DNA of 18,601 nucleotides from a virus. Taxonomy: Duplodnaviria > Heunggongvirae > Uroviricota > Caudoviricetes. A program made the translations under genes and the position numbers. The notes below the pieces were generated by a model that searched no databases, was not told where the DNA came from, and saw only the letters and a list, made by a program, of their open reading frames with translations. Shown piece after piece: positions 17,909 to 18,337 of the stretch (within the stretch, counting starts at the first letter, position 1; each line of letters begins with the position of its first letter). The stretch is from IMG/VR virus record IMGVR_UViG_2711768044_000003; one strand, given 5' to 3'.

Positions 17909-18028
17909 ATGGTGAATCCCCCTGAGCGGAGGGGCATAATGACAGATGTTTGGTCGTGTTATCGTATAGGCAAGTTGCGGATTCTGTCTGGTCATTGCAG
18001 AATTCACCGGGAGGCACCCGGCACCATG
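17909..18028 (+). repeat. Copy A of a 120-nt structured repeat
   Basis: Starts ATGGTGAATCCCCCTGAGCGGAGGGGC and ends ATTCACCGGGAGGCACCCGGCACCAT. The termini are reverse complements of each other and enclose internal GC-rich hairpins. Confidence 0.6.
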
Positions 18029-18162
18029 TATTTTCAATATGTTATTGATCATTCTCTTTTTCGGAATACTCTGGTTATGTTTTCCTGTAACTGATAATTA
18101 AATCACATTTTGTGTAACTGCATATTGTCTGAACGGGATAAGTTTCAGTATCTTCTGAATGT

Positions 18163-18282
18163 ATGGCGAATCCCCCTGTGCGGCGGGGCGTACTGATTTA
18201 AGTAGTCATCCAAGAATGCAGCTGAATGAAAACGCGCTCCATATTAATCAGTGGTGGAGCACCGGGAGGCACCCGGCGCCAT
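18163..18282 (+). repeat. Copy B of the 120-nt structured repeat
   Basis: Starts ATGGCGAATCCCCCTGTGCGGCGGGGC and ends GCACCGGGAGGCACCCGGCGCCAT. Same length and conserved end blocks as copy A, with a divergent middle. Confidence 0.6.
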
Positions 18283-18311
18283 ACCGATGATGAAAGTAAA
18301 TGCGTCCATCC

Positions 18312-18337
18312 GCCCCTCTCCGGAGGGGCTTTTTTAT
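18312..18337 (+). terminator. Strong rho-independent terminator
   Basis: Perfect 7-bp stem GCCCCTC/GAGGGGC with loop TCCG, followed by TTTTTTAT. Lies 30 nt after repeat copy B. Confidence 0.8.

Follow-up and report, generated by a model that had tools for sequence, protein, structure and literature searches.

Two divergent STnc100 small RNA family members stand head to tail in the late region of a lambdoid prophage

Background

STnc100 is a multicopy prophage small RNA (sRNA) and one of the most often annotated sRNA families of bacterial genomes (PMC9029176). In enterohaemorrhagic Escherichia coli (EHEC) EDL933, 11 copies are transcribed, one of them confirmed by Northern blot (PMC5331693). 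Phages encoding Shiga toxin 2 (Stx2) have one copy 75 nt downstream of stx2B (PMC12370729); this stx2-linked member overlaps the Hfq-bound EcOnc27/sRNA103, its variation is predictive of haemolytic uraemic syndrome (HUS), and a Bakta run annotated a member of the family (PMC12711010). Here we describe two STnc100 copies, A and B, in an 18,601-nt stretch of DNA from IMG/VR record IMGVR_UViG_2711768044_000003 (Caudoviricetes). This whole stretch is called the window below, and all coordinates are window positions.

PasD1 and PasD2 of enteropathogenic E. coli (EPEC) E2348/69 (also known as EcOnc13) are 172-173 nt long. Northern bands, Hfq-dependent stability and targets from RNA interactions mapped by ligation followed by sequencing (RIL-seq) have been reported for them, and the linker immediately 5' of the terminator holds both their seed UGUGAG and the positions of their RIL-seq chimeras (PMC8550237). 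In CsrA RIL-seq, PasD2 ranks first among the partners (bioRxiv 10.64898/2026.08.12.744399), and a common ancestor of STnc100 and PasD1/PasD2 was concluded by a 2026 preprint (bioRxiv 10.64898/2026.05.13.724894).

Two STnc100 copies in tandem

Searched against Rfam 15, the window gave two matches to RF02076 (STnc100; gathering threshold 47 bits), at 17878-18082 for copy A (118.9 bits, E = 5.9e-26) and at 18133-18341 for copy B (98.5 bits, E = 9.7e-21). Both span model positions 1-206 of 206, and both exceed the threshold. Our own covariance model, R1, which was built from the homologues described below, assigned 91 bits to copy A and 91 bits to copy B. The hallmark hairpins of the family, 5' GAAUCCCCC..GGGG and 3' CCGGGAGGCACCCGG, lie inside the closing stem of both copies; a terminator a short distance 3' of that stem is present in copy B (18312-18337) and missing from copy A. 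Both repeats are divergent members of the catalogued STnc100 sRNA family. They represent an already known kind of element, and standard Rfam/Infernal annotation names both copies. Among the options raised in a preliminary description of this DNA, a pair of prophage small RNAs ending at 18312-18337 is the one borne out: both copies are full-length STnc100, they lie in a lambdoid prophage, their pairing covaries across the family, and a coding open reading frame (ORF) finds no support.

A repeat search of the window located the two repeats where they had been described. Their shared 5' block (17909-17942 versus 18163-18196, 34 nt) is 85% identical and their shared 3' block (18005-18027 versus 18260-18282, 23 nt) 96% identical, the A and B blocks being spaced by 254 nt at the 5' side and 255 nt at the 3' side. 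The middles have diverged, as noted before, to an identity at background level, or 56% once gaps are allowed in the alignment. A length of 120 nt had been given for both copies; it is right for copy B (18163-18282), but copy A measures 119 nt (17909-18027), its earlier end at 18028 lying one base too far.

The inverted termini of copy A, ATGGTG (17909-17914) and CACCAT (18022-18027), are part of an 8-bp closing stem formed by GCAUGGUG (17907-17914) and CACCAUGU (18022-18029); its counterpart in copy B joins GUAUGGCG (18161-18168) to CGCCAUAC (18277-18284). The preliminary description had reported a single difference between the copies that preserved pairing. Pairing is indeed kept, but over the 8 bp there are two fully compensatory pair changes (U-A to C-G and C-G to U-A) in addition to one change from G.U to G-C. 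The internal GC hairpins seen earlier in each copy are CCCCC..GGGG toward the 5' end and CCGGG-AGGCA-CCCGG toward the 3' end. When the two copies were folded alone and compared, the termini were paired in each minimum free energy (MFE) structure (z = -2.0 for A and -2.8 for B), and they pair likewise when the whole 434-nt unit is folded.

A conserved fold with a pseudoknot

Homologues were collected with the exact 18-mer of the hairpin P5, CACCGGGAGGCACCCGGC, as query, which returned at least 120 stretches from each of two scans; statistics of P5 conservation and of copy number are biased by this way of collecting. Alignment A2 holds 105 distinct cores, and a second alignment holds 150 matches to the covariance model built from A2. 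The family shares a core of about 120 nt, made up of the 8-bp closing stem P1, the hairpin P2, the hairpin P4 pseudoknotted to the segment that follows P2, and a near-invariant P5 stacked directly on P1.

In copy A, the structured core occupies 17907-18029 on the plus strand, as supported by the Rfam match, the MFE fold and the covariation of homologues; that of copy B, supported by the Rfam match and the MFE fold, occupies 18161-18284 on the same strand. P1 (17907-17914/18022-18029 in A, 18161-18168/18277-18284 in B) is followed by the junction AAU (17915-17917 and 18169-18171, respectively) and by P2, which has the pentaloop UGAGC (17923-17927) and a bulged A17930 in copy A (17918-17933), and the pentaloop UGUGC (18177-18181) and a bulged C18184 in copy B (18172-18187). 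The pseudoknot pairs AAUGAC (17938-17943) with GUCAUU (17991-17996) in copy A and ACUGAUU (18192-18198) with AAUCAGU (18246-18252) in copy B, the second strand lying in each case in the loop of P4 (17979-17987/17997-18005 in A, 18236-18242/18254-18260 in B). P5 closes the series at 18007-18021 (CCGGG-AGGCA-CCCGG) and 18262-18276.

The preliminary description had proposed selection on the pairing of the termini, and random rather than compensatory substitutions among homologues would have spoken against it. Across the 105 homologues the substitutions are compensatory and not random: P1 is paired in 92% of cells in A2 (about 90-92% overall), with compensatory changes at 7 of its 8 positions, although the 5' junction was chosen by the best closing stem, which inflates pairing at the inner four P1 positions. 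P2 is paired in 99% of cells in A2, with CG, GC, UA and AU variants, and the base of P4 in 89% (89-98% over the alignments); the 150-match alignment is 95.9% paired overall. None of 500 shuffles reached the observed covariation score, and controls with slid arms were 41-49% paired. The signal of the closing stem exceeds chance, because the termini pair in each MFE structure and the covariation of the homologues is unmatched in the 500 shuffles.

P2 is best read as a stem of 5-6 bp with a UNNGC pentaloop and a bulge, which turns into a base pair in variants with an extra 5' base. The sequence of P5 is almost invariant, and its stem covaries only in diverged members, e.g., CCGUG/CACGG. Among unpaired bases, the AAU of the junction and the GC of the P2 pentaloop are invariant. 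One subfamily (L003, L005, L019, L020, L028, L044, L049, L055, L070, L078, L107, L117 and L118) has P2 fully swapped, with GCGGC-UNNGC-GC-A-CGC replacing CCCCC..GGGG, and an unchanged loop and bulge. Three of its members (L005, L019 and L049) were scanned against Rfam, and since all three miss the gathering threshold for STnc100, Rfam under-reports this branch.

The segment of 5-8 nt that follows P2 is complementary to the loop of P4. Its strands differ between copies A and B at most positions with complementarity kept, and 51 distinct strand sequences were found at a consistent position in the family. Evaluated in fixed columns of a MAFFT alignment, only 45% of cells are paired, the register shifting by 1-3 columns between subgroups; because fixed columns misregister in this way, each sequence was instead compared with its own and with permuted loops. 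Over 103 elements the summed longest complementarity to the own loop is 536, versus 375 +/- 9.8 for permuted loops (z = 16), and the highest of 20,000 permutations is at most 414. The two papers that treat the STnc100 fold used RNAfold or RNAalifold (PMC12370729; bioRxiv 10.64898/2026.05.13.724894). These programs cannot predict pseudoknots; Infernal output hides them, and the RF02076 seed annotation may already mark one.

Promoter-like sites, linkers and terminators

Upstream of the core, 139 non-redundant family regions share a TAnnnT signal at -17 to -12 from the junction G, a position which places the transcription start at or beside the first base of P1. The 5' end of PasD2, as estimated from RNA-seq, is the G of GCAUGGUG, again the first base of the stem. 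As read from the sequence, a promoter-like site precedes copy A at 17871-17899 on the plus strand (TTGTCC at 17871-17876, a 17-nt spacer, TTAAAA at 17894-17899), in a register that matches PasD2 (TTGTCC-17-TTAAAA versus TTGACT-17-TTAAAA). A similar candidate site precedes copy B at 18125-18154 on the plus strand (TTGTCT at 18125-18130, an 18-nt spacer, TATCTT at 18149-18154), and its position agrees with the family-wide -10 signal. From these sites we infer that copy A would start at about 17907 and copy B at about 18161, in each case at the first base of the closing stem.

An intrinsic terminator lies within 150 nt downstream of the core in 107 of 232 family members, compared with 34 when the opposite strand of that stretch is scanned; the median terminator start lies 25 nt past the 8-nt 3' arm of P1. 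Copy B keeps this plan. Its linker, CGAUGAUGAAAGUAAAUGCGUCCAUCC (18285-18311, plus strand), is predicted to be mostly unpaired and is the positional counterpart of the PasD seed stretch. It leads to the terminator at 18312-18337 (plus strand; GCCCCUC-UCCG-GAGGGGC, then U6), rightly called strong in the preliminary description: a 7-bp stem with six G-C pairs and a T6 tail, at -21.7 kcal/mol (z = -2.4). The 3' tail of copy A, together with the spacer that leads to copy B (18030-18124, plus strand), is U-rich and PasD-linker-like and carries no intrinsic terminator. The terminator positions of copy A are degenerate, so any transcript of it should run into copy B, and the terminator at 18312-18337 probably also ends any such read-through.

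Origin and distribution of the pair

A recent tandem duplication was considered as the origin of the pair and rejected: copy A has 94%-identical relatives, found in four phage contigs, copy B has no relative above 64% among 238 sampled members, and the two copies match each other at background level. Full-length A and full-length B were each found in 26-27 of 5,426 complete E. coli genomes, as was the flanking spacer; many of these genomes come from mice. Partial family matches occur in 3,204 genomes. In E. coli RSHH22 (L122) and IGC_EcoliInv_1.1 (L123), the 5' arm of P2 in copy A (window 17918-17922) reads CCTCA for CCCCC.

Tandem copies are found elsewhere in the family. Three phage contigs carry head-to-tail arrays of three copies with a period of 253-254 nt (L145, 372-989; L160, 1725-2342; L197, 4379-5460, with an additional copy 464 nt further), the first two units of each having their own terminators. 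A Pantoea plasmid has six copies within about 1 kb (L056, 949-1989) and Superficieibacter has three (L054, 6369-7002). Rfam calls all these array copies STnc100, and gives homologues from other genera the same name. In the PasD literature, copies are described as distal rather than tandem (bioRxiv 10.64898/2026.05.13.724894).

Among the matches listed, the P5 18-mer occurs in Kosakonia, Enterobacter, Klebsiella, Salmonella, Citrobacter, Pantoea, Erwinia, Rahnella and other genera, and also in IMG/VR phage contigs. Typical family members were also seen on contigs labelled Prolixibacteraceae (L024), Vagococcus (L115) and, from a metagenome-assembled genome, Mucilaginibacter (L083); these labels probably reflect contaminated or mis-binned enterobacterial DNA. 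Two subfamilies have neighbours of their own. One (L015, L033, L041, L043, L046, L057, L065, L080, L114 and L115) lies about 200 nt upstream of a co-oriented KdgM-family porin gene and is bordered on its other side by a divergent LuxR-type regulator; another (L027, L075 and L121) lies 160-190 nt upstream of a flagellin gene.

Prophage context

The window comprises the left part and the middle of a lambdoid prophage. It encodes an integrase (1-1314, minus strand), a CI-like repressor (7949-8695, minus strand) and, on the plus strand, a Cro-like protein (8800-9042), helicase and primase (9792-12420), a Q antiterminator (PF03589; 13277-14107), a DNA methylase (15749-16807), three tRNAs (16848-17091) and a 142-aa protein with a TolA C-terminal domain (PF06519, E = 1.8e-23; 17280-17708). 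An esterase-type gene, annotated DUF6645/DUF1737 in RefSeq and yjhS-like in Stx phages, starts at about 18518. The STnc100 pair thus stands 3' of Q, the tRNAs and the TolA-like gene and directly 5' of the sialate-esterase/lysis block. PasD2 of E2348/69 fills the same slot, between Q and the SASA esterase gene, and so does the stx-linked STnc100 of Stx phages.

The last 1.7 kb of the window are 99.5% identical to the mouse E. coli strains M3 and M1, in which an unannotated gap with both RNAs is followed by the esterase-type gene, holin, lysozyme, an Rz-type lysis protein and terminase. Compared with strain M3 (L001), the window is a mosaic: identity begins at 16827, and to the left of this point the window has the DNA methylase, M3 other genes and a short 'antiterminator' fragment.

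Some further observations concern the neighbourhood. The third tRNA (17021-17091, plus strand), which follows tRNA-Met/Ile2(CAT) and tRNA-Arg(TCG), is degenerate. It scores 42.8 bits with the Rfam tRNA model in a permissive regional scan, is unlisted in the whole-window scan at gathering threshold, is called tRNA-Gly by PGAP in strain M3 and is missed by ARAGORN. A tRNA-like gene was considered for the repeats themselves but is not supported by the detectors: ARAGORN and the Rfam tRNA model match only 16848-17091, and the cloverleaf-like layout of four helices is a mere resemblance. The TolA-domain cargo gene (17280-17708) sits where Stx phages carry stx, and its product might interfere with TolA-dependent entry of phages or colicins.

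A candidate mini-gene on the minus strand (18338-18443) runs toward the STnc100 terminator, with a promoter-like TGCACA-17-TATTAT at 18443-18415, an intrinsic terminator at 18372-18348 and a predicted RNA of about 65 nt. The 73-nt stretch 18338-18410 folds with z = -2.99 and is shared by the 27 E. coli genomes that hold the tandem pair; a RybB-like match stays below threshold (21 bits, E = 0.26). Within the window, positions 17913-17929 of copy A (UGAAUCCCCCUGAGCGG) are 76% complementary to the ribosome-binding region of the esterase gene (18502-18518, CCGUCCGGGAGGAUUCA); this complementarity falls inside P2 and is near what chance gives.

Possible function and alternative readings

We consider it likely, with a fair margin for error, that the locus holds two adjacent STnc100 sRNA genes in the cargo slot of the lambdoid late region, acting as Hfq-bound base-pairing sRNAs. 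Each copy would be transcribed from its own weak sigma-70 promoter, from the first base of P1 (about 17907 and 18161). The RNA of copy B would end at 18337, at a length of about 177 nt, and copy A, its terminator lost, would read into B to give about 430 nt unless processed. Both RNAs would be made in the lysogen, as are PasD and EcOnc27. Hfq would bind through the terminator tail and the U-rich linker, and host and prophage mRNAs would be base-paired through the linker or the variable loops. The 5' end would be buried and protected by the pseudoknotted 5' domain, a stable scaffold that may bind protein. During lytic growth, Q-modified polymerase would cross the whole unit into the lysis genes. 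Transcription, Hfq association and mRNA pairing are what we infer for this pair by analogy with its relatives.

Several observations weigh against this picture. Both promoter-like sites are weak and below the threshold of a consensus scanner. Neither a terminator scanner nor our own scan found a terminator for copy A, and copy A mismatches the Rfam model at its terminator positions. The PasD seed UGUGAG is absent from the plus strand of 17701-18601, so that PasD targets are not transferable to this pair. The P2 of copy A shows two uncompensated substitutions in close relatives, copy B being invariant (three genomes), and judged from these sequences copy A may be decaying or under relaxed constraint. 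For any member of the family, demonstrated function stops at Hfq/CsrA association and overexpression effects. Finally, the near-invariant P5, the invariant AAU and the GC of the P2 loop exceed what a simple scaffold needs, which hints at a specific partner outside the seed-pairing model; by analogy, the abundance of PasD2 in CsrA complexes may be a lead on that partner. A consistent CsrA-type GGA motif is lacking, though: the P5 loop is AGGCA, and a GGA in P2 hinges on the variable bulge base.

These last points feed a different reading, which we regard as rather unlikely, in which the pseudoknotted domain is itself the functional part and binds a specific host or phage protein or a small ligand, as decoy, sponge or riboswitch-like aptamer, with seed pairing secondary and arrays raising the dose. 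The fold, a four-helix junction with a pseudoknot, would suit such a role, as would the invariant AAU and P2-loop GC, arrays of 3-6 copies, and the abundance of PasD2 in CsrA complexes. The P5 18-mer is exact across many genera and phage contigs, and P5 is near-invariant even in copies detected by the model, although in the main sample its invariance is partly by construction, the loci having been collected with that 18-mer. No partner is known, however, and PasD is reported to be abundant, Hfq-dependent in stability and target-rich despite its loss of P5 and the P2 pentaloop. The genes downstream of family members are heterogeneous (esterase, holin, KdgM-type porin, flagellin), and no alternative terminator/antiterminator pairing is evident, which counts against a classical riboswitch. 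A riboswitch or cis attenuator of the classical type is not supported on these two grounds; inspected by eye, the folds revealed no alternative pairing for the core, for the linker/terminator or for the unit as a whole. Were the binding role true, the STnc100 core would be a discrete, tRNA-sized domain, a phage-spread decoy or aptamer module with its dose tuned by arrays. Action in cis on the late operon transcript, either as a processing or stability signal in the 3' untranslated region of the TolA-like gene or as an insulator or attenuator before the esterase and lysis genes, appears to us improbable. The pair does belong to the Q-dependent late transcription unit, where two co-oriented genes flank it; its sole terminator stands just before the esterase gene, no consensus promoter separates that terminator from the esterase start, and in Stx2 phages STnc100 follows stxB by 75 nt (PMC12370729). 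Set against this are the family-wide promoter-like signal immediately 5' of P1, the 5' end of PasD at the first stem base, the array units of other phages that carry their own terminators, and members in contexts unrelated to late operons. Action in cis and a role as independent genes are compatible with each other.

We give hardly any credence to the remaining explanations, namely that the repeats are miniature inverted-repeat transposable elements (MITEs), an option in the preliminary description, or that the 117-aa ORF at 17741-18094 is a real gene. There are inverted termini and two nearby copies, and an open frame does run across copy A. The termini comprise only 6-8 bp, though, and covary, and a check for target-site duplications found no flanking direct repeat of at least 4 nt at any offset up to 4. 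The middles of A and B, 56% identical, have fully diverged with pairing kept, and the copies are not each other's closest relatives. TTG is the start codon of the frame, which lacks any Pfam match above threshold and is unannotated by PGAP in three RefSeq genomes, and the lengths of family elements are evenly spread over the three residues modulo 3; its earlier dismissal as an artefact agrees with these results.

Significance

The locus alone adds little, the family being catalogued, and is of low interest in itself. As a clean case from nature, in which two family members in tandem have diverged and one is apparently losing its terminator, it may be of use in studies of how prophage sRNA repertoires diversify. 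The incremental results lie at the level of the family: a covariation-supported pseudoknot, a revised P2 with UNNGC pentaloop and bulge, a fixed plan of promoter, core, linker and terminator, and a spread far beyond E. coli and Salmonella that includes tandem arrays. These side results give concrete mutants for probing the conserved 5' domain, and may help work on the family, including the Hfq-bound sRNA downstream of stx2, whose variants are linked to HUS risk (PMC12711010).

Comparison with known systems

MITEs and repeats of the enterobacterial repetitive intergenic consensus (ERIC) type resemble the pair in being short, non-coding, RNA-foldable repeats with inverted termini. They differ from it in that here there is no target-site duplication, the copies are far from identical, the termini covary, and only the fold and a few motifs are kept. 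Nearer in setting are the sRNAs of lambdoid prophage late regions: StxS, the short transcript from PR', and the anti-sRNAs AsxR and AgvB are small, Hfq-associated RNAs from late or cargo regions of lambdoid prophages in lysogens. A pseudoknotted 5' domain is absent from these short RNAs, and the window gave no Rfam match to AsxR or AgvB. PasE, a CsrA-guiding sRNA, was considered as well and set aside as an unrelated, 56-nt RNA.

PasD comes much closer. It shares with the pair the slot between Q and the SASA/sialate-esterase gene, immediately upstream of the latter, the P1 sequence GCAUGGUG, the promoter layout, the U-rich 3' linker and the arrangement of P4 and pseudoknot, with the PasD strands AAUGAUC and GAUCAUU; our model R1 detects PasD2 (28 bits, E = 5e-4). 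The differences are that PasD is without P5, which the window copies keep, that its P2 has a CUUG-type loop, that it falls below the Rfam RF02076 threshold, and that its seed UGUGAG is missing from the window.

With STnc100 itself (RF02076, 'Gammaproteobacterial sRNA STnc100'), both copies share the closing stem and the hairpins P2, P4 and P5, and copy B alone the linker and terminator; they also share the placement in a lambdoid late region near tRNAs, Q and lysis genes, in a family that is multicopy per genome. What sets this locus apart is that two copies stand head to tail, 254 nt apart, the first without a terminator, and that none of the 238 sampled members is close to copy B in its variable middle. 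Compared with the stx2-linked STnc100, the upstream cargo here is a protein with a TolA C-terminal domain, where Stx2 phages carry Stx.

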